A stretch of DNA of 64,000 nucleotides from Octopus vulgaris (taxonomy: Eukaryota), in contig OX597815.1 in the NCBI GenBank assembly GCA_951406725.2, positions 151,094,001 to 151,158,000 of the forward strand, in the 5' to 3' direction. This document shows, one piece after another, positions 1,814 through 27,960 of this stretch (position 1 is the stretch's first letter; each line of letters begins with the position of its first letter). The position numbers and the translations under genes were made by a program. The notes beneath the pieces are model-generated. The model did not search any database, was not told the origin of the DNA, and saw only the letters and a list, made by a program, of their open reading frames with translations.

Positions 1814-2180
1814 CAGGAGGCGCAATGGCCCAGTGGTTAGGGCAGCGGACTCGCGGTCGTAGGATCGCGGTTTCGATTCCCAGACCGGGCGTTGTGTGTG
1901 TTTATTGAGCGAAAACACCTAAAGCTCCACGAGGCTCCGGCAGGGATGATGATGATCCCTGCTGTACTCTTTCACCACAACTTTCAAAGTTCTTACTATT
2001 TCAAAGGGCCGGCCTTGTCACTCTCTGTGTCACGCTGAATATTCCCGAGAACTGCGTTAAGGGTGCACGTGTCTGTGGAGTGCTCAGCCACTTACACGTT
2101 AATTTCACGAGCAGGCTGTTCCGTTGATCGAATCAACCGGAACCCTCATCGTCGTAACCGACGGAGTGCTTCCACACCAC
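1814..2180 (+). mobile_element. tRNA-derived SINE (family D), CpG-rich
   Basis: A box TGGCCCAGTGG and B box GGTTTCGATTCC followed by a ~290 bp non-tRNA body; a related 3' part occurs near 51170-51250. Confidence 0.8.
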
Positions 2181-2422: not shown

Positions 2423-2501
2423 TATATATATATATATATATATACATATATATACATATATATATATATACATATATATACATATATATATATATATATA
2501 C

Positions 2502-2556
<55 letters not shown>

Positions 2557-2707
2557 CATATATATACATATATATACATATATATATATACATATATATA
2601 CATATATATATATATACATATATATACATATATATATATATACATATATATACATATATATATATATATACATATATATACATATATATATATATACATA
2701 TATATAC

Positions 2708-2738
<31 letters not shown>

Positions 2739-2783
2739 CACATATAAATACATATATATATATATATACATATATATACATAT

Positions 2784-2881
<98 letters not shown>
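2423..2881. repeat. (TA)n/(TATACA)n compound microsatellite
   Basis: Direct reading. Confidence 0.97.
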
Positions 2882-4408
2882 GATTGATTGATTGATTGAT
2901 TCCAGTTTCAGCTCATGAGCTGTGGCCATGCTGGGGCACCGCCATTTGGTGTTGCTACTTGGTTTCACTTCATGGAGGCTTTCTAGCAACTGCTATTTGG
3001 TGCATGAGAGAGTTCGATGCAGCTGCCCTCATCTGCCCCTCCTGCCGTGAAGTTGGTTCATCTGGGACACCTGACAGGAAGAGATCCAGCTTCATTTTAA
3101 AGACATCTGTATCCACCCCATGCAGGTCTCTCAGGTTCTTCGGGAGGATATTGAAGAGCTGTGGGCCTCGGAAGCCCAGGCTATCACAGAATCTTGTCCT
3201 ACATCTTGATGGCAGGTTTGGAGTCCTTGGCACCACGCAGTGGCGCCCAGTTCTGGCATTTGCGTAACTCTCGATGCCAAAGTTCAGGACACTTCCCTCC
3301 AGGATCTTCCAGATGTATATTATGGCATATCTTTCCCGCCTACGCTCCAGAGAATATAATTTTAATCTCTTGAGTCTTTCCCAGTAGCTTACATTCTGCA
3401 TAGAGGCTATCTTCTTTGTGTAGCTTCGTTGGATCGCCTCAAGTTCTGTGATCAACTTGACACTGGATGGTGACCATAGCTGAGAGCAATAGTCAAAGTG
3501 GCTTAGGACAAGTGTCTTCCAGAGGACCATCATGGTTTTTTGTTCTCTTGTTCTAAAGGTTCTAAGAATCCATCCAGCCAGCCGTCTACATTTCATTGCC
3601 AGTTTAGCAACATGTACATGAAAGGTCGCGTCATCACTCATGTGAATACCCAGGTCACGCACTGATTGTGCCTCTGGGATTGCAATCCCTCCGGGTCCAG
3701 TGTATTCATTGGGTATTGCATTCAGTTTTGCATGCTGATAGTATAAAGCTTGAAACTTTCCAGCATTGAACTGCATGCTATTCTTTTCAGCCCACTTGTA
3801 TATTTCGTCTAGCTCACATTGCAGGTGTTTAGTGTCCTCAGGGTTCTGTATTGCCTGTGAAACTTTTGTATCATCTGCATAACTTGTGATCGTGCCTCTC
3901 TGCATGGCTGAGGGCATGTCTGAGAGGGCCATTATGAACAGTAGTGGTCCCAGAACAGTGCCCTGCGGAACACCGCTCACTATTTGTGTGTTAATGGAGG
4001 TGGCCCCATTGGCTACTACCACCTGACTTCTATCCTTCAGAAAGTCATGAAGCCATTTTCCCAGTTTTCCAACTATGTTGAGATCACGCAGTTTGTGACA
4101 TATCATTCCATGATCGACTTTATCAAAGGCCTTTGCAAAGTCGAGATATATCACTTCCACATTTGAGTGGTTGAGCAGCCGTTTCAGCACCCAGTCATAG
4201 TGTTGTAGGAGCTGAGTTAAACAGCTTCTCCCTGGTCGGAAACCATGTTGGGTGTCGGGCAGCAAGTCATTTTCTTCAAGGAAGGTGATCAGCTTCCTTC
4301 TGACTATTCGGTCCATGACCTTGCTGATGTGTGAGGTCAGAGAGATAGGTCTATAGTTCTTGGCTTCCGCTCTGCTACCTCCTTTATGAATGGGGCATAT
4401 TTTACCTT

Positions 4409-4410
<2 letters not shown>
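2882..4410 (-). mobile_element. 5'-truncated CR1-group LINE, copy A (RT + C-terminus + 3'UTR, (TCAA)n tail)
   Basis: Open frame 2970-4410 with [46 protein letters not shown] and SLERRRERY; tail abuts the TA array. Confidence 0.95.
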
Positions 4411-4493
<83 letters not shown>

Positions 4494-4616
4494 TATACAT
4501 ATATATATATATACATATATGTATATATATATACATATATATACATATATATATATACATACATATATATATATACATATATATACATATATATATACAT
4601 ACATATATATATATAC

Positions 4617-4647
<31 letters not shown>

Positions 4648-4648
4648 C

Positions 4649-4685
<37 letters not shown>

Positions 4686-4786
4686 CATATATACATATAT
4701 ATATATACATATATATACATATATATATACATATATGTATATATATATATACATATATATACATATATATATATACATATATATAC

Positions 4787-4817
<31 letters not shown>

Positions 4818-4838
4818 CATATATATACATATATATAC

Positions 4839-4869
<31 letters not shown>

Positions 4870-5048
4870 CATATATATACGTATATATATATACATATAT
4901 ATATACATATATATATATACATATATATATATACATATATATATACATATATATATACATATATATATATACATATATATATATACATATATATATATAC
5001 ATATATATATATACATATATATATATACATATATATACATATATATAC

Positions 5049-5111
<63 letters not shown>

Positions 5112-5268
5112 TATACATATATATATATACATATATATATATATACATATATATACATATATATACATATATATATATACATATATATACATATATATAT
5201 ATATACATATATATACATATATACATATATATACATATATATATATATATACATATATACATATATAC
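4411..5268. repeat. (TA)n/(TATACA)n compound microsatellite
   Basis: Direct reading. Confidence 0.97.
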
Positions 5269-5371
5269 CGGAGTAAACACATAAATGTGAAACAAGGTGG
5301 AAAAAAGAGTACTCAAATACCAGTGGTAGAGTAATATGCTTTATTTTAAGCAGCAGAAAATTCAACAAAAT

Positions 5372-5409
5372 CTGTTACTCTGAGTTTCTCGTTGCCGTTC
5401 ATCAGACAG
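5372..5409 (-). ncRNA. Minimal hammerhead ribozyme motif (left arm)
   Basis: CTGT-CTGATGA-ACGGCAACGA-GAAA-CTCAGAG-TA-ACAG on the minus strand. Confidence 0.75.
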
Positions 5410-7320
5410 TTTTTGCTAGAATGGAACATATATATTAATTCAATCTATACTCTTACAAACGCTACACCTTTAAAAAGAAATGGACTTGTTTGATTGGCCC
5501 TTTAGAAAAAACGGTCAATCTTCGAGCGATAAACAAAAAGGTCAAAAATATATGTATATATATATAAAAACTTATAAAATTATAAAATCCGAGGAAAATA
5601 CCGAGGAAAAAACCTGTTGCCGTTAATGAAGACAGTACAAATTAATGCATAGAAATTAAACCTGTTATAAATACTGCAATACATATTTATATTAAAATCC
5701 ACATATATATATCAACATACACAAAAGGATGCGCGTAAACGCCATACATACATATACAGACGTATGAATATGAATCTAAATTATACACATAAAAGCATGT
5801 GTACATATATTCACGCAAACCGTCTCGCACGCAAGCTAAAATTCATCTATGTAGCAATTCTCATATACTGAGCAAGGAGGGGGAACGAAAGAAAGGGAAA
5901 GAGAGAAAAAGGAACGGAGGAGGGGTGGGGAAAAAACTTGTAGCGATGTTATTTGGCATCTATAGAGGCCAGTATACATACACAAGTTTGAATTGATACA
6001 TATACATACCGTCGTGTATATGTGTGCTTAAGCACAAGCATACTCTCACTTACACATACACAGATACGCATGCTTACAAATACATATGCTTTGCTATACA
6101 CAAACTTATATAAACATTCTAAATTTGACAACATTGCTTTTTTTATAAAAAAACATTGCTTTTAAAAAATGGGTGCATTAATAAAAATATATACGAAAGA
6201 CCTATAAAATAAAATATAACATCCTATTTTGGGTCATTTATAAATAATCAAGGTAATATAAATAATCAAGGTAATCTTATGCAATACAATAACATGAAAA
6301 CAAAGTTTGTAGGTTTTTCCTAATATATATGTAGAAACAATAAGACTTTGACTCTTGAGCGCTACAACGGACCTATAGCAAAGTCTTATTGTTTCTACAT
6401 ATATATTAGGAAAAACCTGCAAACTTTGTTTTCATGTTATTGTATTGCATAAGATTACCTTGATTATTTATATTACCTTGATTATTTATAAATGACCCAA
6501 AATAGGATGTTATATTTTATTTTATAGGTCTTTCGTATATATTTTTATTAATGCACCCATTTTTTAAAAGCAATGTTTTTTTATAAAAAAAGCAATGTTG
6601 TCAAATTTAGAATGTTTATATAAGTTTGTGTATAGCAAAGCATATGTATTTGTAAGCATGCGTATCTGTGTATGTGTAAGTGAGAGTATGCTTGTGCTTA
6701 AGCACACATATACACGACGGTATGTATATGTATCAATTCAAACTTGTGTATGTATACTGGCCTCTATAGATGCCAAATAACATCGCTACAAGTTTTTTCC
6801 CCACCCCTCCTCCGTTCCTTTTTCTCTCTTTCCCTTTCTTTCGTTCCCCCTCCTTGCTCAGTATATGAGAATTGCTACATAGATGAATTTTAGCTTGCGT
6901 GCGAGACGGTTTGCGTGAATATATGTACACATGCTTTTATGTGTATAATTTAGATTCATATTCATACGTCTGTATATGTATGTATGGCGTTTACGCGCAT
7001 CCTTTTGTGTATGTTGATATATATATGTGGATTTTAATATAAATATGTATTGCAGTATTTATAACAGGTTTAATTTCTATGCATTAATTTGTACTGTCTT
7101 CATTAACGGCAACAGGTTTTTTCCTCGGTATTTTCCTCGGATTTTATAATTTTTATAAGTTTTTATATATATATACATATATTTTTGACCTTTTTGTTTA
7201 TCGCTCGAAGATTGACCGTTTTTTCTAAAGGGCCAATCAAACAAGTCCATTTCTTTTTAAAGGTGTAGCGTTTGTAAGAGTATAGATTGAATTAATATAT
7301 ATGTTCCATTCTAGCAAAAA

Positions 7321-7358
7321 CTGTCTGATGAACGGCAACGAGAAACTCAGAGTAACAG
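7321..7358 (+). ncRNA. Minimal hammerhead ribozyme motif (right arm)
   Basis: Stem I CTGT/ACAG; CTGATGA; short stem II CG-GCAA-CG; GAAA; palindromic stem III CTC-A-GAG; GUA site. Confidence 0.75.
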
Positions 7359-7391
7359 ATTTTGTTGAATTTTCTGCTGCTTAAAATAAAG

Positions 7392-7398
7392 TATATAC

Positions 7399-7471
<73 letters not shown>

Positions 7472-7500
7472 CATATATATATATACATATATATATATAC

Positions 7501-7581
<81 letters not shown>

Positions 7582-7768
7582 TATACATATATATATACAT
7601 ATATATACATATATATATATATACATATATATACATATACATATATATACATATATATATATATACATATATATACATATATATATATATACATATATAT
7701 ACATATATATACATATATACATATATATACATATATATATATATACATATATACATATATATACATAT
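7392..7768. repeat. (TA)n/(TATACA)n compound microsatellite
   Basis: Direct reading. Confidence 0.97.
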
Positions 7769-9463
7769 GATTGATTGATTGATTGATTGATTGATTCCAG
7801 TTCCAGCCTATGAGCTGTGGCCATGCTGGGGCACCGCCATTTGGTGTTGCTACTTGGTTTTACTTCATGGGGGCTTTCTAGCAACTGCTATTTGGTGCAT
7901 GAGAGAGTTCGATGCAGCTGCCCTCATCTGCCCCTCCTGCCGTGAAGTTGGTTCATCTGGGACACCTGACAGGAAGAGATCCAGCTTCATTTTAAAGACA
8001 TCTGTATCCACCCCATGCAGGTCTCTCAGGTTCTTCGGGAGGATATTGAAGAGCTGTGGGCCTCGGAAGCCCAGGCTATCACAGAATCTTGTCCTACATC
8101 TTGATGGCAGGTTTGGAGTCCTAGGCACCACGCAGTGGCGCCCAGTTCTGGCATTTGTGTAACTCTCGATGCCAAAGTTCAGGACACTTCCCTCCAGGAT
8201 CTTCCAGATGTATATTATGGCATATCTTTCCCGCCTACGCTCCAGGGAGTATAATTTTAATCTCTTGAGTCTTTCCCAGTAGCTTACATTCTGCATAGAG
8301 GCTATCTTCTTTGTGTAGCTTCGTTGGATCGCCTCAAGTTCTGTGATCAACTTGACACTGGATGGTGACCATAGCTGAGAGCAATAGTCAAAGTGGCCCA
8401 GGACAAGTGTCTTCCAGAGGACCATCATGGTTTCTTGTTCTCTTGTTCTAAAGGTTCTAAGAATCCAGCCAGCCAGCCGTCTACATTTCACTGTCAGTTT
8501 AGCAACATGTACATGAAAGGTCGCGTCATCACTCATGTGAATACCCAGGTCACGCACTGATTGTGCCTCTGGGATTGCAATCCCTCCGGGTCCAGTGTAT
8601 TCATTGGGTATTGCATTCAGTTTTGCATGCTGATAGTATAAAGCTTGAAACTTTCCAGCATTGAACTGCATGCTATTCTTTTCAGCCCACTTGTATATTT
8701 CGTCCAGCTCACATTGCAGGTTTTTAGTGTCCTCAGGGTTCTGTATTGCCTGTGAAACTTTTGTATCATCTGCATAACTTGTGATCGTGGATCTCTGCGT
8801 GGCTGAGGGCATGTCTGAGAGGGCCATTATGAACAGTAGTGGTCCCAAAACAGTGCCCTGTGGAACACCACTCATTATTTGCGTGTTAATGGAAGTGGCC
8901 CCATTGGCTACTACCACCTGACTTCTATTCTTCAGAAAGTCGTGAAGCCATTCTCCTAGTTTTCCAACTATGCCAAGATCACGCAGCCTGTGACATATCA
9001 TTCCGTGATCGACTTTATCGAAGGCCTTTGCGAAGTCGAGATATATGACTTCCACATTTGAGTGGTTGAGCAGTTGTTTCAGCACCCAGTCATAGTGCTG
9101 CAGGAGCTGAGTTAAGCAGCTTCTTCCTGGTCGGAAACCATGTTGGGTGTCAGGCAGCAAGTCATTTTCTTCAAGGAAGGTGATTAGTTTCCTTCTGACT
9201 ATTCGTTCCATGACCTTGCTGATGTGTGAGGTCAGAGAGATAGGTCTGTAGTTCTTTGCCTCCGCTCTGCTACCTCCTTTATGAATAGGGCATATTTTAC
9301 CTTCCTTCAGTCCCCTTGGAAGTTTGCCAGCTGCAAGGAAGCTCTGAAAGAGGGACTGCAGTGGTCTTGCTAAGACTCTCTTACATACTTTTAGGAGGAT
9401 TGCCGGGAATCCATCGGGGCCAGTAGCTGAGTCTATTTTCATTTCATCTATAGCCTTTATTAC
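7769..9463 (-). mobile_element. 5'-truncated CR1-group LINE, copy B (same family as copy A)
   Basis: Open frame 7865-9463 from [18 protein letters not shown] through the RT motifs to ARKPP*; (TCAA)n tail; about 15 amino-acid differences from copy A. Confidence 0.95.
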
Positions 9464-12827
<3,364 letters not shown>

Positions 12828-13020
12828 GTTTTTATATCATTGGTGTGTTTTAGCGTGTGTAAGATTTTCGAAGATACAAAGAGAAAGCTGTTAGAAAATT
12901 AAAAAAACCAGTTTGTGTTGATAAAGATACAGTAGCATTCTGGTTTTAGTTTCTTAAGTAGTATTTGAGTTGGTAAAATAAATTTCATAAATCATTGTCA
13001 GTTACTACCAAAAAACCTTC

Positions 13021-17359: not shown

Positions 17360-18255
17360 ATGGCAAGAAACTGGTCTGCGAGAGAGGTGCAATTGTTCGT
17401 CCGCGCTTGGAAGATCGCTGAGGACGACTCGCCAAACGAAATTATTGCTGCGGCGCTGAAAAGCAACAATTTTTCGAGAACCACCGCCCAGATAGAGCGA
17501 AAGAAGAGAGAAGTTATCCGTTCGTACGCTCTAATCAGGCAACATGTGGACACCCTGGACATCATCCTGGGAGGTGACGGCAGCAGGGAGGGCCAAAAGG
17601 ATGAGGAAAGCATCCAGAGCCAAATGGAGAAGCCTGGAACACAGGGAAACGATGACACATGTCCAGCTTCCAACACCACAACTGAAGACCAAAGAGGTGC
17701 GATGGCCGCAAGAAAGGAAAGGCACCCTGGAATTGATGGGAAGCAGGAGGTAAAGGGTGACAGAATCAAGGCTAAAGGAAGCCCTGTCCAGAGAAAGCAG
17801 AGGGACCCCAGCAAAAACTGTAAGGGCAGGGAAAGAAACACCTGCAAATTCTACCTGAGGGGGACTGCTGGTACGGCGTTGAAGGTGCAAACTGTCGCTT
17901 TGCACATCGGAGGCCCTACCAAAACCGCACGGACGCGAGACAGAGGTCCCTCCCTCAGGGAGAACAAAAACAAAAAGTTAAAAGAAGGGAAAAAAGCGCA
18001 CTGACCACTACTGAAAGACGGTATGCAGATGTGGTGCGCGGAAACCCAACAGGTGGCCAGCTTCACCCAGATGTGAGAAGGGCGGCAGCTGAACAGCAGT
18101 CTTTTTTGTGCATGGCACAAAAAATTGTTCAGCAGCTGACCTGGCTACAAGCACAAAGCTGGAACTACCACCACATAAGGCCACCTCCAACAGATGCAGG
18201 ATGGCCACCACAGACACCAACACCAACACACACACCACAAAAATATTTCTACTGA
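17360..18255 (+). CDS. LINE ORF1: Myb/SANT-like N-terminus + CCCH zinc finger (1-nt frameshift at G-run 17859-17863)
   Basis: Track ORFs 17360-18004 and 18031-18255 join into 298 aa if one G is added. The joined frame reads CKFYLRGDCWYGVEGANCRFAH and later RYADVV. Confidence 0.75.
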
Positions 18256-21212
18256 ATGTAGGAGGGCTGCTGCGCGGAAACTGTAAAAAGAAAATTTCAT
18301 TCCTGAGAGACCTTGTGACATGCAATCAAGCTATATGCATGGCACTCACAGAAACGCATCTTGAACCCGATATAGGTGATGCAGAAATACACATGCCGCA
18401 ATATGCAGTCATACGCACAGATAGAAAAGGGAGGAGCCATGGTGGAGTTGCAATGTACATCCGAGATGACCTCACGCCCCAGGTCCTGCTGTCATATTCA
18501 AACTCAGTATGTGAAACTCAAATTGTACACATAAGACAACTGAATATCGTCATATGCACTACATATCGCCCACCAGACGCCCCAAAACACTCAGGCATGT
18601 TTGAAGACTGCCTAACAAAAATAGGAGAAGTCCTCACCAACCTTGAACAGCACAACAGTGTATTCTTCATGGGTGACTTTAACCTCCCCAATGTGGAATG
18701 GCCTGGGGGGCAGATGCTCCCAGGGATGACACACCATCAGCAGGCACAGGTGGAGTCCCTGCTCCATCTCACAAATACCTCTTTCATGGAGCAAATAGTT
18801 CTGCAACCAACAAGGGCAGATAATATACTGGATCTCTGCTTTACAAACAATATGGATATTATCCATAATGTTAATGTGATGCCGACAATGATCTCGGATC
18901 ACAACATAATAGAGCTGTCTACGTATGGAACAAAAGCCCCCGCAGACACACAGCCTATACGAAGCACCCACCATCTCTCCAACTTAAACTTTCATAAAGC
19001 CAACTGGAAGTCGATTGAGAAAGAGATCCTCAAACAGGATTGGCCTGAATGTCTCTCCACACCGGACATAAACATGAAACACAAACACTTCATGTCCATA
19101 ATACAAGCCATATGTGACAAATATGTCCCAATGTGCAGGGCCAGCACACACAAGAATAGAAACAGGATCCCTAGAGAAAGGAGGATTCTTATGAGACGAC
19201 GGACAAGGATTGCAAACCGCCTGAGCAAGCACACCAAAAGTGGTGAGAAGTCTCGGCTCGAAAGAATGCTAATGGAAACTGAGAAAAGTCTACATCAGTC
19301 CCATGAAAAGGAGAGAGCAGATAAAGAAGCTTGGGTAATAGAAAATATAAAATCAAACCCTAAAGCTTTCTTTAAGTTTGCCAAAGAGACAGCCACAGTG
19401 CACCAGAGAATAGGACCTCTCTTCCAAAAAGATGGCTCTCTCACAGGAAATCCCACGAGGATAAGTGAAATACTGAACGAACAGTTCCAAAGTGTATTCA
19501 CTACACCTCTAGGACACAGGCAAGTAAACAACCCAGAAGAATTCTTTGCCACTTTACCAGCGGCCAAAGAGACAAAAATTGAGTACATCAACATCGAAGA
19601 AGATGATATCACACTAGCCATTGATGAGATTGACACAAACTCAGCTGCTGGACCTGATGGATTCCCAGCGATCCTTCTCAAATCGTGCAAACGAGCCCTT
19701 GCAAAACCGCTACAGCTTCTTTTTCAGAGCTTTCTTGCAAGTGGTAAGCTCCCAGTCAAACTGAAAGAGGGGGTAATATGCCCTATCCATAAGGGAGGTA
19801 GCAGAGCAGATGCTAAAAATTATAGGCCTATCTCTCTGACCTCACACATCAGCAAAGTCATGGAACGAATAGTCCGTAAGAAACTAATCATGTTCCTTGA
19901 AGAAAATGACTTACTGTCTGACACCCAGCATGGATTTCGACCAGGTAGAGGCTGCCTAACACAGCTCCTGCAACACTATGACTGGGTGTTGAAACAGCTA
20001 CTAAATGGCTCAAATGTGGATGTAATATATCTTGACTTTGCAAAAGCCTTTGATAAAGTCGACCATGGTATGATCTGTCACAAACTGCGTGGTCTCGGCA
20101 TAGGCGGGAAACTTGGAGAGTGGCTGCACAACTTCCTAAAAGACAGAAAACAGGCAGTTGTGAGCAATGGAGCCACCTCCAGGGAAACGCAAATAACAAG
20201 CGGTGTCCCACAGGGCACTGTCTTGGGGCCACTGATGTTCATAGTGGCCCTTTCAGACATGCCTTCAGTTGCTACGATGACCACCCTTGCTAGCTATGCA
20301 GATGACACAAAGGTCTCCCACGCAATACAGAACCCTGAAAATATTGCGCATCTGCAACATGAGCTGGACACAATATACAGGTGGGCTGAGGACAACAACA
20401 TGCAGTTTAATGCAGGTAAGTTCCAGGCCCTGCGCTACTGGCACACAAAGGTAAATGACGTGAAGACTGGATACACTGGCCCAGGAAGAATTGCAATCCC
20501 TGAGTCAAAATCAGTGCGTGACCTGGGCATTGACATGAGCAATGATGCATCTTTCCAAATGCATATTGCTAATCTGGTGATAAAATGCAGACGGCTAGCT
20601 GGATGGATTCTCCGAACTTTCAGAACAAGAGAGAAGGAGACACTGATGGTCCTATGGAAAACATTTGTCCTCAGCCGCTTGGACTACTGCTCCCAACTTT
20701 GGTCACCACACAATATAAAACAAACAGCAGAACTCGAAGCAACTCAGAGAAGCTACACAAAGAAAATCGTCTCAATGCAAAATGTCAGCTACTGGGAAAG
20801 ACTGAAGGTATTAAACCTCTTCTCCCTGGAGCGGAGGCGGGAGAGATATGCAGTAATATACATCTGGAAAATCCTGGAGGGTCTTGTCCCAAACTTTGGC
20901 ATTCAAAGTTACTCCAACCGCAGAACGGGGCGCCGCTGCGTGGTGCCAAGGATTCCAACATCACCATCAAAATACAGGTCCAGATACTGCAACAGCTTGG
21001 GTTTCAGAGGACCACAGCTTTTCAACATCCTCCCTAAATGCCTGAGAGACTTACATGGTGTGGATGTGGGTTTCTTTAAAACTAAACTGGATCTCTTCTT
21101 GTTGGGAGTCCCAGATGAACCTACCTCACGACAGGAGACACGGATGCGGGCAGCAGCATCGAACTCCCTTGTTGATCAAGTGCCACGTATCAGAGGTGGA
21201 TTCACAAACTAG
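18108..21212 (+). CDS. LINE ORF2: AP endonuclease + reverse transcriptase, intact frame
   Basis: LNVGGL, LTETHL, GGVAMY, YRPP, GDFN, LDL and SDH (APE); [18 protein letters not shown] and YADD (RT). 1034 codons without a stop; likely ATG at 18201 overlapping the ORF1 end. Confidence 0.96.
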   Translation: MHGTKNCSAADLATSTKLELPPHKATSNRCRMATTDTNTNTHTTKIFLLNVGGLLRGNCKKKISFLRDLVTCNQAICMALTETHLEPDIGDAEIHMPQYAVIRTDRKGRSHGGVAMYIRDDLTPQVLLSYSNSVCETQIVHIRQLNIVICTTYRPPDAPKHSGMFEDCLTKIGEVLTNLEQHNSVFFMGDFNLPNVEWPGGQMLPGMTHHQQAQVESLLHLTNTSFMEQIVLQPTRADNILDLCFTNNMDIIHNVNVMPTMISDHNIIELSTYGTKAPADTQPIRSTHHLSNLNFHKANWKSIEKEILKQDWPECLSTPDINMKHKHFMSIIQAICDKYVPMCRASTHKNRNRIPRERRILMRRRTRIANRLSKHTKSGEKSRLERMLMETEKSLHQSHEKERADKEAWVIENIKSNPKAFFKFAKETATVHQRIGPLFQKDGSLTGNPTRISEILNEQFQSVFTTPLGHRQVNNPEEFFATLPAAKETKIEYINIEEDDITLAIDEIDTNSAAGPDGFPAILLKSCKRALAKPLQLLFQSFLASGKLPVKLKEGVICPIHKGGSRADAKNYRPISLTSHISKVMERIVRKKLIMFLEENDLLSDTQHGFRPGRGCLTQLLQHYDWVLKQLLNGSNVDVIYLDFAKAFDKVDHGMICHKLRGLGIGGKLGEWLHNFLKDRKQAVVSNGATSRETQITSGVPQGTVLGPLMFIVALSDMPSVATMTTLASYADDTKVSHAIQNPENIAHLQHELDTIYRWAEDNNMQFNAGKFQALRYWHTKVNDVKTGYTGPGRIAIPESKSVRDLGIDMSNDASFQMHIANLVIKCRRLAGWILRTFRTREKETLMVLWKTFVLSRLDYCSQLWSPHNIKQTAELEATQRSYTKKIVSMQNVSYWERLKVLNLFSLERRRERYAVIYIWKILEGLVPNFGIQSYSNRRTGRRCVVPRIPTSPSKYRSRYCNSLGFRGPQLFNILPKCLRDLHGVDVGFFKTKLDLFLLGVPDEPTSRQETRMRAAASNSLVDQVPRIRGGFTN

Positions 21213-21287: not shown

Positions 21288-21506
<219 letters not shown>

Positions 21507-25350: not shown

Positions 25351-25822
25351 TCAAAGACTCGGGAAATGATTTAGCAGCAAATTATTAGTTTTCATGAAGT
25401 TAACTAAGTCTTCTTTGTTCAAGAAAGAATCCTTTCTTTTCAAGAATCTGACTAATTTTTTACACACCAATCTCTGGCGTTTTTTCCGTTCCACTAGTTT
25501 CTGCCAGTGAGCTCTTGTCACCATTGCTCCTATGATTTGCACTGACGCTGGCAGCTGTTTACCAGCGCTATCAAGAAGTTTCCTCTTTACAACTGAATTT
25601 TCCAGGTGAGTCAGTCGCAGCTCAAGTCGTTTGATCTCCCTGCTGAGAACAGTTATTCGAATTAAGGCATTCTGTCGGTTAGTCTTTATACAGTGAGCTG
25701 TGCACTGCTGGGAACTGTCTGTCCATAAACTCACCGTGTGTGTGGCGTGATGAAGGACAAAGCGAATCAGGTTCGTCAGGGTCTTCGGCAAATCCTCCGA
25801 GTACACAACACTGTCTTCTTTC
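25351..25822 (-). CDS. Candidate terminal coding exon of an unknown host gene (156 aa)
   Basis: Pyrimidine tract TTTTTGTCTCTTTCCAG followed by a stop-free, non-repetitive, protein-like frame (KEDSVVYSEDLPKTL...NHFPSL*); no family recognised. Confidence 0.5.
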
Positions 25823-26079
25823 CTGGAAAGAGACAAAAACTGAAATTAACAATTTGAAACACAAATGGTGCTCCAGCATGACCACAGCCACCGGGCTGAA
25901 ATGCATAAAAGAATAAAAATATACAACTAAATATATAATACACACACACATATGATATAAACACATTATATACAGATATTCTTTAATAGCTTAAAATATT
26001 CTTTAATTGCGGATTTTCAACATTATCTTACGTTTCATGCATTATACAGTTCTATATTTGAAAGCTGAGGAATTCTGTA

Positions 26080-26622
26080 AATTATTTACATTATTTACAT
26101 TTGACAGATATTTGTCCTCATCTTGTTTGTTGTTAACACAATGTTTCAGCTGATGTACTCTCCAGCCTTCATCAGGTGTCCAAGGGGAATTTCAAACCTG
26201 AGTTCTTGTTCCTAAGGTATTTTCCCGATGTTATTATTATTACTATTATTATTATTATTCAGGTCACTGCCTGAAATTGAACTCAGGATCTTGGAATTAG
26301 TAGCCCGTGCTCTTAAGCACGACACCATATGCCCGTGGGCAATTATGGAGTGAATTTTAGGGCTCATAAATCTATTTTTCTATACTTCCTAAATACAGGT
26401 TTCCATATGCTACTCATATCTGCACTTGGTCTGCTTAAGAGGTTATTATGTCCTAGCATATGTGCTACCTCTTTTAGTTTTCATATTTTCTAGTGGTATT
26501 CTCTGTCTAATATTTTAATTCCCCCAGGACACCTGATGAAGGTTGGAGAGTACATCAGCCACCGAAACCTTCTGTTAACAATAAACAAGATGAGGACAAA
26601 TATCTGTCAAATGTAAATAATG
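26080..26622 (-). mobile_element. Penelope-like 3' fragment: GIY-YIG end + tRNA-like cassette + HHR pLTR, with inverted pLTR
   Basis: 26364-26519 minus reads IKILDREYH*KI*KLKEVAHMLGHNNLLSRPSADMSSIWKPVF; 26089-26190 is inverted against 26517-26622; HHR cores at 26135-26180 (-) and 26528-26576 (+). Confidence 0.8.
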
Positions 26623-26769
26623 TTCATGCATTATAGTTCACAAATTACAAGTGTTCCACTTTTAAAAAAATGATGGTAATCTGTATCAATATTGTTACCA
26701 TTGAAAAACTACAAATAAAGAAAATAGGGATGTTTGTGGCTTTCGTTACTTTGCTTTTATTTTTTTTAT

Positions 26770-27160
26770 TTTATTTTCTTTTACTTGTTTCAGTCATCTG
26801 ACTGCGGCCATGCTGGAGCACCACCTTTAGTCAAACAAATCGACCCCAGGACTTATTCTTTGTAAACCTAGTACTTATTCTATCAGTCTCTTTTGCCGAA
26901 CTGCTAAGTTACGGTGATGTAAACACACCAGCATCGGTTGTCAAGCGATGTTGGGAAACAAACACAGATACATAACATATACACATACATATATATATAC
27001 ATACATATATATGACAGGCTTCTTTCAGTTTCCGTCTACCAAATCCACTCACAAGGCTTTGGTTGGCCCAAGGCTTTGCCCAAGGTGCCACGCAGTGGGA
27101 CTGAACTTGGAACCATGTGGTTGGAAAGCAAGCTACTTACCACACAGCCACTCCTGCACC
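26770..27160 (-). mobile_element. SINE family A, full length
   Basis: tRNA-like head GGAGTGGCTGTGTGGTAAG..GTTCAGTCCC, internal (TA/TG) spacer, tail GGTGCTCCAGCATGGCCGCAGTC. Confidence 0.88.
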
Positions 27161-27164
27161 TACA

Positions 27165-27960
27165 ATTTATTGCAATTGTTTTCAAATTTGGTATATAGAT
27201 TAAGTTTTGTATACTAATTATGGAAATAAAATTCAGTTTTCTATAAGTCCATAATTAAAAAGTTATTAGCTTTTAAAATTTGCAAATTTTGGGTATTTTA
27301 GCCAATCAGAAGCGAGTATTTTACACATTATTGTGGCGCAAAGCTGTTTCCATAGTAATAAAAGATGCTGCGCATGTGCACAAGGAGGAGAAGGAGATAT
27401 GAGAAAGATAGTCTTCTTACTAGTATAATACTCTTCTGTTTTTCTTTGTCACGACATATGAATGAGAAAGGAAGGGGTGATAGATGAATAAGGAAGGAAG
27501 GGGTGATGGTAGTGGGAGCTTTTCAACTCTGTGTGAGAATGTGTGTGTATGTAAAAGGGAGGGATGTGAATGTTTGTGTGTGTGTGTGTGTGTATGTGTG
27601 TGTGCAACAGAAGTGAGATGGTGAACATTCAACGCTGAAGAGAAAAAATCAAACAGTGTTTCAACTCCGTTTGAGAATATGTGTATGTGTGTGTGTGTGT
27701 ATGTGCATGAACAAGGGAAGGAGCAATGTTTTAACATACTGATGCCCCCTGTCCCCACCCCTGATGATGGGAGAGGCAGCGAATGTGCTGTTTGCTGATT
27801 AGCTGAAAATTCTAAAAAATTATCATCCTTTGAATACCTGTAACATTTTTTGAATACCTGTAACATTTTTTGCAAAATTTTCTGGAGTAAATCAATAACA
27901 AATTCGGATTCAGCATCAAAACTTACATCTATATGATACATTAGAAATTCTTTTTAAAGA
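27165..27960. mobile_element. Possible MITE/DNA-transposon remnant
   Basis: Sub-terminal inverted segments (TTTTAGCCAATCAG vs CTGATTAGCTGAAA); the internal part recurs inverted at 30688-30825. Confidence 0.4.

Follow-up and report, generated by a model that had tools for sequence, protein, structure and literature searches.

Within the window, by which we mean the whole 64-kb stretch of Octopus vulgaris DNA that was analysed, we delimited a 576-bp insertion at positions 26047-26622. It is flanked on both sides by an identical 13-bp target-site duplication (TSD; upstream copy 26623-26635, downstream copy 26034-26046), whose sequence has only these two copies in the 64-kb window. Read on the minus strand, the insertion consists of an inverted arm, the C-terminus of an ORF, a tRNA-like segment, an (AAT)n tract, a minimal hammerhead and a tail; by sequence, the feature order and coordinates given by an earlier sequence-only reading hold, and to its span of 26080-26622 we added the TSD and a 41-bp extension to 26047. 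The inverted arm (26517-26622, plus strand) is a 5'-truncated pLTR with a damaged hammerhead and the short tail end. It matches 26191-26088 at 97 of 104 aligned letters with one 3-nt gap, in agreement with the earlier observation that an inverted pLTR copy adjoins the truncation point. The direct arm extends 41 bp past the inverted one, on one side only, and reaches 26047 at the TSD. The 7 mismatches between the arms correspond to about 3.4% per arm, which at the substitution rate of 0.0036 per My used in PMC13282606 would give a rough figure of about 9 My. Within the window we found no second copy of the element and no second target duplication around the tRNA-like segment. The locus holds one unit with its inverted arm and not tandem hammerhead units, and coding sequence lies inside the TSD of this copy, so that there is no non-coding unit with a TSD of its own here. 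Six further opposite-strand joints of the inverted-arm kind were present in a set of contigs (X6) that is described below.

About 120 bp before the insert, on its upstream side (26758-27165, minus strand), there is a different, abundant SINE of tRNA origin with several relatives in the window, where single-copy tRNA-like SINE heads with near-perfect A and B boxes were also seen at 1818-1880 (plus strand), 28598-28544 (minus) and 46231-46177 (minus). At 25351-25825 (minus strand), a 156-codon open stretch behind a splice-acceptor-like site has no Pfam match; it is probably an exon of a host gene, in which case the element may lie in an intron. LINE sequences comprise a stop-free 1039-codon ORF with APE endonuclease and reverse transcriptase (RT) at 18093-21212 (plus strand), followed by a short inverted repeat at 21386-21506, and related truncated copies within 2495-12900 (2495-4410 and 7392-9305, 95% alike). 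These truncated copies run directly into very long (TA)-rich tracts, at junctions that suggest microsatellite-linked insertion or duplication.

The coding end of the insertion (26364-26516, minus strand) reads as a 49-codon frame from 26513 to 26367 with two internal stops in the window copy. The terminal stop that had been noted at 26364 was read from the sequence as the codon 26366-26364, and other copies have a different stop codon in its place. Using the coding end as a query, phmmer retrieved 90 proteins at an E-value of at most 0.001, of which 87 match the same C-terminal stretch; the remaining three (P0016, P0035 and P0047) were discarded as unrelated repeat proteins. Of ten matches that were looked up, the only named one, P0003, is labelled Octopus vulgaris, is 76% identical to the coding end and begins with an antisense translation of the tail, and therefore has the same inverted-arm layout. 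A profile search yielded 12 longer proteins, 9 of them with a reverse transcriptase domain (PF00078). The C-terminal end of P0117, an RT-bearing ORF of 806 aa, matches the window at 61% identity over 41 aa; RVT_1 is present in both P0117 and P0092, whose ends are formed by the stretch matched by the window, and the single-ORF layout is read on these relatives only. On this protein evidence the coding end is of Penelope type. We take its endonuclease to be GIY-YIG from a motif recognised by eye, a domain that was named by no Pfam or PDB match, and the element may belong to the Poseidon clade, which it resembles. A word-based protein search with the window fragment returned no scoring match, protein-to-locus scans of viral and prokaryote contigs returned nothing (143 pattern matches in prokaryotes, none confirmed), and plasmids held no match to the element. 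Thirteen loci from pattern scans of viral and metagenome contigs were all rejected as chance matches of 19-27 nt.

A 23-bp spacer (26341-26363, minus strand), the best-covered part of the 5' half in other copies, separates the stop codon from the tRNA-like head. The tRNA-derived cassette and its short leader occupy 26262-26340 (minus strand), as defined by the A and B boxes, a T-arm hairpin and presence in other copies. The sequence-only reading had described A-box-like and B-box-like parts in this segment, and searching with box patterns we found the pair: an A box at 26327-26317 (two mismatches to the pattern) and a B box inside the T-arm hairpin at 26283-26273 (one mismatch), 44 nt apart, against 43-44 nt in several SINE heads of the window. 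When the 154 nt from the stop to the ATG position discussed below were shuffled 5000 times with dinucleotides preserved, such a pair arose in 35 cases. The T-arm hairpin (6 bp) that holds the B box forms in the minimum free energy fold, the cassette as a whole folds unremarkably relative to shuffles (z -1.07), and ARAGORN and Rfam called no tRNA in it. The cassette is a degenerate tRNA-derived head and no tRNA gene; its anticodon-loop-like stretch lies in the 26300-26297 region, and the loop may resemble that of a serine tRNA. BLAST of the cassette against the window's own SINE heads gave no match at an E-value of at most 1, and local alignments with seven of these heads were weak (best p about 0.003), so by sequence it is not recognisably from any SINE family of the window. 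The antisense frame across the tRNA-like head had no scoring match in a word-based protein search. Downstream of the cassette, the (AAT)n tract (26231-26259, minus strand) is likely the tail of a captured SINE-like insert. Transcription by Pol III is expected to start a short distance upstream of an A box, and the predicted start lies near 26340. The sense strand contains no T4 in 470 nt, and the longest T run inside the unit is 3.

The hammerhead motif is a minimal type I at 26135-26180 (minus strand), found as a descriptor match with features as in PMC4209133. Stem I is formed by 26180-26176 and 26139-26135, the core (26175-26169) is followed by stem II and by GAAA at 26147-26144, and cleavage is predicted after 26140. 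The descriptor matched the window here (at 26175) and, more loosely, at 1326, and had no match in 30 shuffled windows; Rfam called no hammerhead. Core boxes, an extra base before stem II, a short stem I and the absence of stem III are all found here, as described for metazoan PLE hammerheads (PMC4209133). The window copy is weakened at 26148 and 26142, where neither the G10.1-C11.1 pair nor the palindromic 15.2-16.2 is present, and the canonical letters at these two positions account for 69% and 67% of the X6 depth, respectively. Minimal hammerheads of the PLE type are described as cleaving poorly alone (PMC4209133), and cleavage was dispensable for in vitro insertion of the anole element (PMC11167929).

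The tail (26047-26134, minus strand) has a short end at about 26088-26080 and a long end at 26047: among the best 24 of 546 loose contig ends most lie at 26080-26088, and 143 contigs run on into the extension. A frame is open throughout the tail, which is probably the N-terminus of an ORF. The likely start codon of this next ORF is at 26209-26207 (minus strand), where the window copy has no ATG and other copies have one in about nine tenths of the depth, in frame with the open stretch 26191-26045; at 26194-26192, where the window copy has a stop, about half of the depth carries a sense codon. A sister-family peptide, P0008, matches the frame that runs through hammerhead and tail at 46% over 39 aa (E-value 1e-6), and the S..KFR motif of P0008 recurs near the start of the full ORF P0117. 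Compared directly with the P0117 N-terminus, the window frame gave no significant match (5/9, E-value 0.79), and MAFFT did not align the S..KFR motif. In the anole element, hammerhead and tail overlap the ORF start and RT initiates 111-118 nt into the ORF (PMC11167929); the ends of the octopus element lie about 120-130 and 160 nt after the ATG position. From the match to P0008, the recurrence of its motif in P0117 and the likeness to the anole element, the first part of the next ORF probably runs through hammerhead and tail. The cassette of a tandem master would then stand about 130 nt before the ATG, in a promoter position, and the internal promoter of Penelope is located there, before the ATG (PMC2377424; PMC8557442).

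To assess other copies of the element, we aligned 4 of the 24 listed sequence runs to 25917-26516. Contig set X6 contributed 21,827 records covering all parts but the (AAT)n tract, which was skipped. Contig set X9, from another study, is guessed to be RNA and served as structural evidence only; as the two runs are not alike in label or depth, the X9/X6 depth ratio was given no weight. Very few reads of the family occurred in the two raw-read runs (972 aligned reads in X22, almost all of them on a flank satellite, and 71 in X23), so that their lack of sites at which many molecules start or stop is uninformative. Relative to a single-locus depth of about 54, the summed depth of contigs is in the thousands for cassette and coding end and reaches at most about 10^5 in the tail, ratios that are not copy numbers.

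Among the 16 longest pieces listed, records 6 and 7 from X6 and records 14 and 15 from X9 span the coding end and the head. Their identity to the window of 84-88% marks them as other copies, and since these carry the tRNA segment, the cassette is integral, as the sequence-only reading had allowed for; its alternative, that other copies would lack the segment, failed on the same four records. The A box and the hammerhead also appear bridged across the (AAT)n tract in two more contigs, as seen from the two ends of the join. A one-off SINE insertion into a single Penelope copy, which would agree with the lack of another copy in the window, was rejected because the coding end is joined to the head in other copies from two studies, and it would also leave the missing second target duplication around the cassette unaccounted for. 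The A-box mismatches of the window copy are absent from 99% (26321) and 97% (26317) of the X6 summed depth, so that in most copies the A box is better than the one in the window; majority letters come from 40 of 79 rows, none of these in the B box. In X6, a contig at depth 133 has the head region twice (joint 26356 to 26299), and the 25 letters in the gap look like a variant B box; this contig may come from a copy with a duplicated cassette. At a loose end of X23 at 26155, 13 reads run in sense through the tRNA-like head to just past its A box and then pass into the first half of the hammerhead in antisense; this junction looks tail-to-tail and differs from the usual inverted arm.

Among the differences listed for the coding end, synonymous changes make up 6 of 10 in codons 9-41, where a share of 0.28 is expected (P 0.03), and 8 of 15 over all listed coding sites (P 0.02), in both cases for a selected subset of rows; in addition, both arms share two non-majority letters (26159 and 26155). 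The synonymous excess and the shared letters suggest that at least two coding master lineages carried the cassette. From the read-through peptides of related proteins, sister Penelope families appear to be without it: of 103 proteins, 37 run at least 18 residues past the last conserved motif, and one of the 103 matches the spacer or cassette, weakly (E-value 0.02). Proteins P0011, P0018, P0019, P0023, P0094 and others form a sister Penelope family with a different shared post-ORF sequence, which recurs as the same read-through peptides and offers a natural cassette-free control.

The sequence-only reading had proposed a SINE-like unit mobilised by a PLE, or an internal promoter in the pLTR, with a Pol III RNA of about 250 nt. 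For free short copies starting at the tRNA head, we examined depth and junctions in the contigs. Summed X6 depth shows no step at the head: the two bins next upstream have 666k and 358k, those inside the head 402k and 250k, and the coding bins 26397-26476 have 210-294k. Such sums are no copy numbers and favour stretches where the window copy resembles the majority. The test is therefore biased against head-start copies, which miss part of the best-matching stretch. The best 24 of 546 loose ends hold no cluster at the head. Sense-side joints listed in one junction table are at 26342, 26339, 26374, 26475, 26477, 26491 and 26463, and those in a second table, whose kind is not given, at 26341, 26356 and 26336 (15 of 26 and 12 of 23 rows listed, respectively; the direction of some joints is not given, and the window locus's own joint, 26191/26516, and skips are excluded). 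Three or four of the 9-10 listed junctions thus fall at 26336-26342, 9-15 nt upstream of the A box, a cluster at the place where a Pol III start is expected. Its depth-weighted p is 0.005-0.06 (4/10), 0.03-0.15 (3/9) or 0.07-0.24 (2/6, first table only), depending on window width and count, the width having been fixed once the data were known. Junctions also gather at 26475-26491, where there is no promoter, and one joint leads from the tail (26086) back to the head (26341), the pattern expected of a head-to-tail pair. Preferred 5' ends at 26336-26342 are only a hint, and in most copies that bear the cassette the sequence seems to extend upstream into the coding part. Of the earlier proposals, the mobilised SINE-like unit retains the hint from the junctions, against a majority of cassette copies that seem to run into coding sequence. 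The internal promoter fits in position, since hammerhead and tail probably overlap the next ORF start, whereas Pol III synthesis of a full ORF RNA would be unlikely. The size of about 250 nt agrees with RT from the tail site (253-294 nt) but not with termination inside the unit, which has no terminator.

We then compared the element with known systems. It resembles EN+ Penelope-like elements of the Penelope/Poseidon type (PAc, PMC11167929; PMC8557442; PMC4209133) in having, in its relatives, an RT followed by a C-terminal endonuclease-type end, and further in its 5' truncation, adjacent inverted arm, AT-rich target, one-sided tail of 30-40 bp (here 41 bp) and minimal hammerhead overlapping the likely ORF start. 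The passages compared do not describe a tRNA A/B-box cassette and (AAT)n tract between stop and hammerhead, which set the octopus element apart; in the corresponding region the Penelope of D. virilis has a TATA-less internal promoter and an intron. The schistosome elements Sm-alpha and Sj-alpha (PMC6765202, PMC2770079) also place a tRNA-derived Pol III promoter before a hammerhead, a likeness of order only: they are non-coding and often tandem, and their hammerheads are called canonical in PMC4209133, whereas the octopus pair is embedded in an ORF-bearing Penelope end and its hammerhead is minimal. The TRIMp3 elements Cassandra, Helenus and Ajax (PMC10886601) share a small-RNA-derived Pol III cassette inside a terminal repeat, proposed in that paper to arise by SINE insertion into the repeat. 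Unlike the octopus element they are non-autonomous LTR elements with a PBS and PPT, and their autonomous partners are expected to be without the cassette, which in octopus lies directly behind coding sequence. Animal non-LTR retrozymes (PMC7229834; bioRxiv 10.64898/2026.07.22.740005) are likewise short hammerhead units related to PLE pLTRs, and are proposed in these sources to be non-autonomous PLE derivatives, with the ancestry inferred and the mechanism left unresolved in the preprint. They form tandem arrays with one hammerhead per unit, and the passages compared mention no tRNA-type promoter; the octopus locus is in contrast a single truncated copy with a coding remnant. A tRNA head with a hammerhead was thus already known from Sm-alpha, whereas the literature searched gave no report of a tRNA-type cassette inside the repeat of a coding Penelope element (repeat databases and subscription papers being outside its scope).

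The cassette-bearing pLTR is a real, family-wide structural variant of a Penelope-like element. Its most likely reading is a Pol III promoter together with a minor class of short inserts, and the main rival is an inert passenger. On sequence grounds, we lean slightly towards regarding the window copy as a truncated ORF-bearing Penelope copy whose pLTR cassette is a fixed trait of the family, likely derived from a SINE and likely a Pol III promoter for a minor short template. The sequences establish the anatomy, the Penelope nature of the coding end and the occurrence of the cassette in other copies, and the steps that follow are inferred. In a single event, a tRNA-derived element with an (AAT)n tail would have inserted into a master's pLTR, downstream of the ORF stop and upstream of the hammerhead, and the masters would have stayed protein-coding. 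Most copies, the window copy included, would come from a longer RNA, with RT starting in the tail and stopping early and the inverted arm being added. Pol III would start near 26340 and read through hammerhead and tail; with no T4 on the sense strand, the transcript would extend over the RT start site and could be copied by the protein of the element into SINE-like inserts of 253-294 bp, as a minority class. The stronger form of this reading, an autonomous Penelope with a working Pol III promoter in its pLTR that continually spawns inserts of 250-295 bp (tRNA head, hammerhead and tail), is tentative and less likely than not.

In the passenger reading, the cassette would be a SINE or a retrocopy of a tRNA that entered a master's pLTR once and was amplified along with it but had no role as promoter, a possibility that we hold doubtful and yet take seriously. 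The tRNA head and (AAT)n resemble a complete small retroposed insert, the cloverleaf is degenerate, sister families seem to manage without the cassette and depth has no step at the head; indeed, all the facts reported here are common to the passenger and to the favoured reading. The passenger fits less well with an A box that the majority has kept intact despite divergence between masters at several synonymous sites, and with junctions that gather near the predicted Pol III start. Another reading, that the head-to-tail unit is mainly a free-standing high-copy SINE mobilised by the Penelope element, with coding copies the exception, could draw on the junctions at 26336-26342, including the returning joint from 26086 to 26341, and on the bias of the depth test; the missing X6 depth step and the lack of a head cluster among the top loose ends listed make it improbable. 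More improbable still is a cassette acting as promoter of the full-length element, with Pol III transcribing the downstream ORF in tandem copies in place of a Pol II-type promoter. Pol III transcripts are uncapped, and an ORF of 2.4 kb is unlikely to be free of T4-T5 runs. The distance of about 130 nt to the likely ATG, which is the place of Penelope's internal promoter (PMC2377424, PMC8557442), and an A-rich sense strand with no T4 in 470 nt speak for such a role, and the argument in PMC10886601 that autonomous elements must use Pol II speaks against it.

The favoured reading, with the cassette as a likely Pol III promoter, bears on how short non-autonomous hammerhead elements gain a promoter and split from Penelope elements. 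A tRNA-type cassette, a hammerhead and a likely RT start site are found here inside 300 bp of a coding Penelope family whose genome is well assembled, and the locus therefore offers a test of the route from PLE to SINE. If the cassette is a passenger only, the finding is a curation detail, in that automatic annotation would split the copies into 'SINE' and 'Penelope' pieces. If the promoter works and short inserts are made, the element would show a SINE driven by Penelope at the moment of its emergence within the partner element itself, and would provide a direct model for the origin of Sm-alpha-like elements and of Pol III-driven retrozymes.
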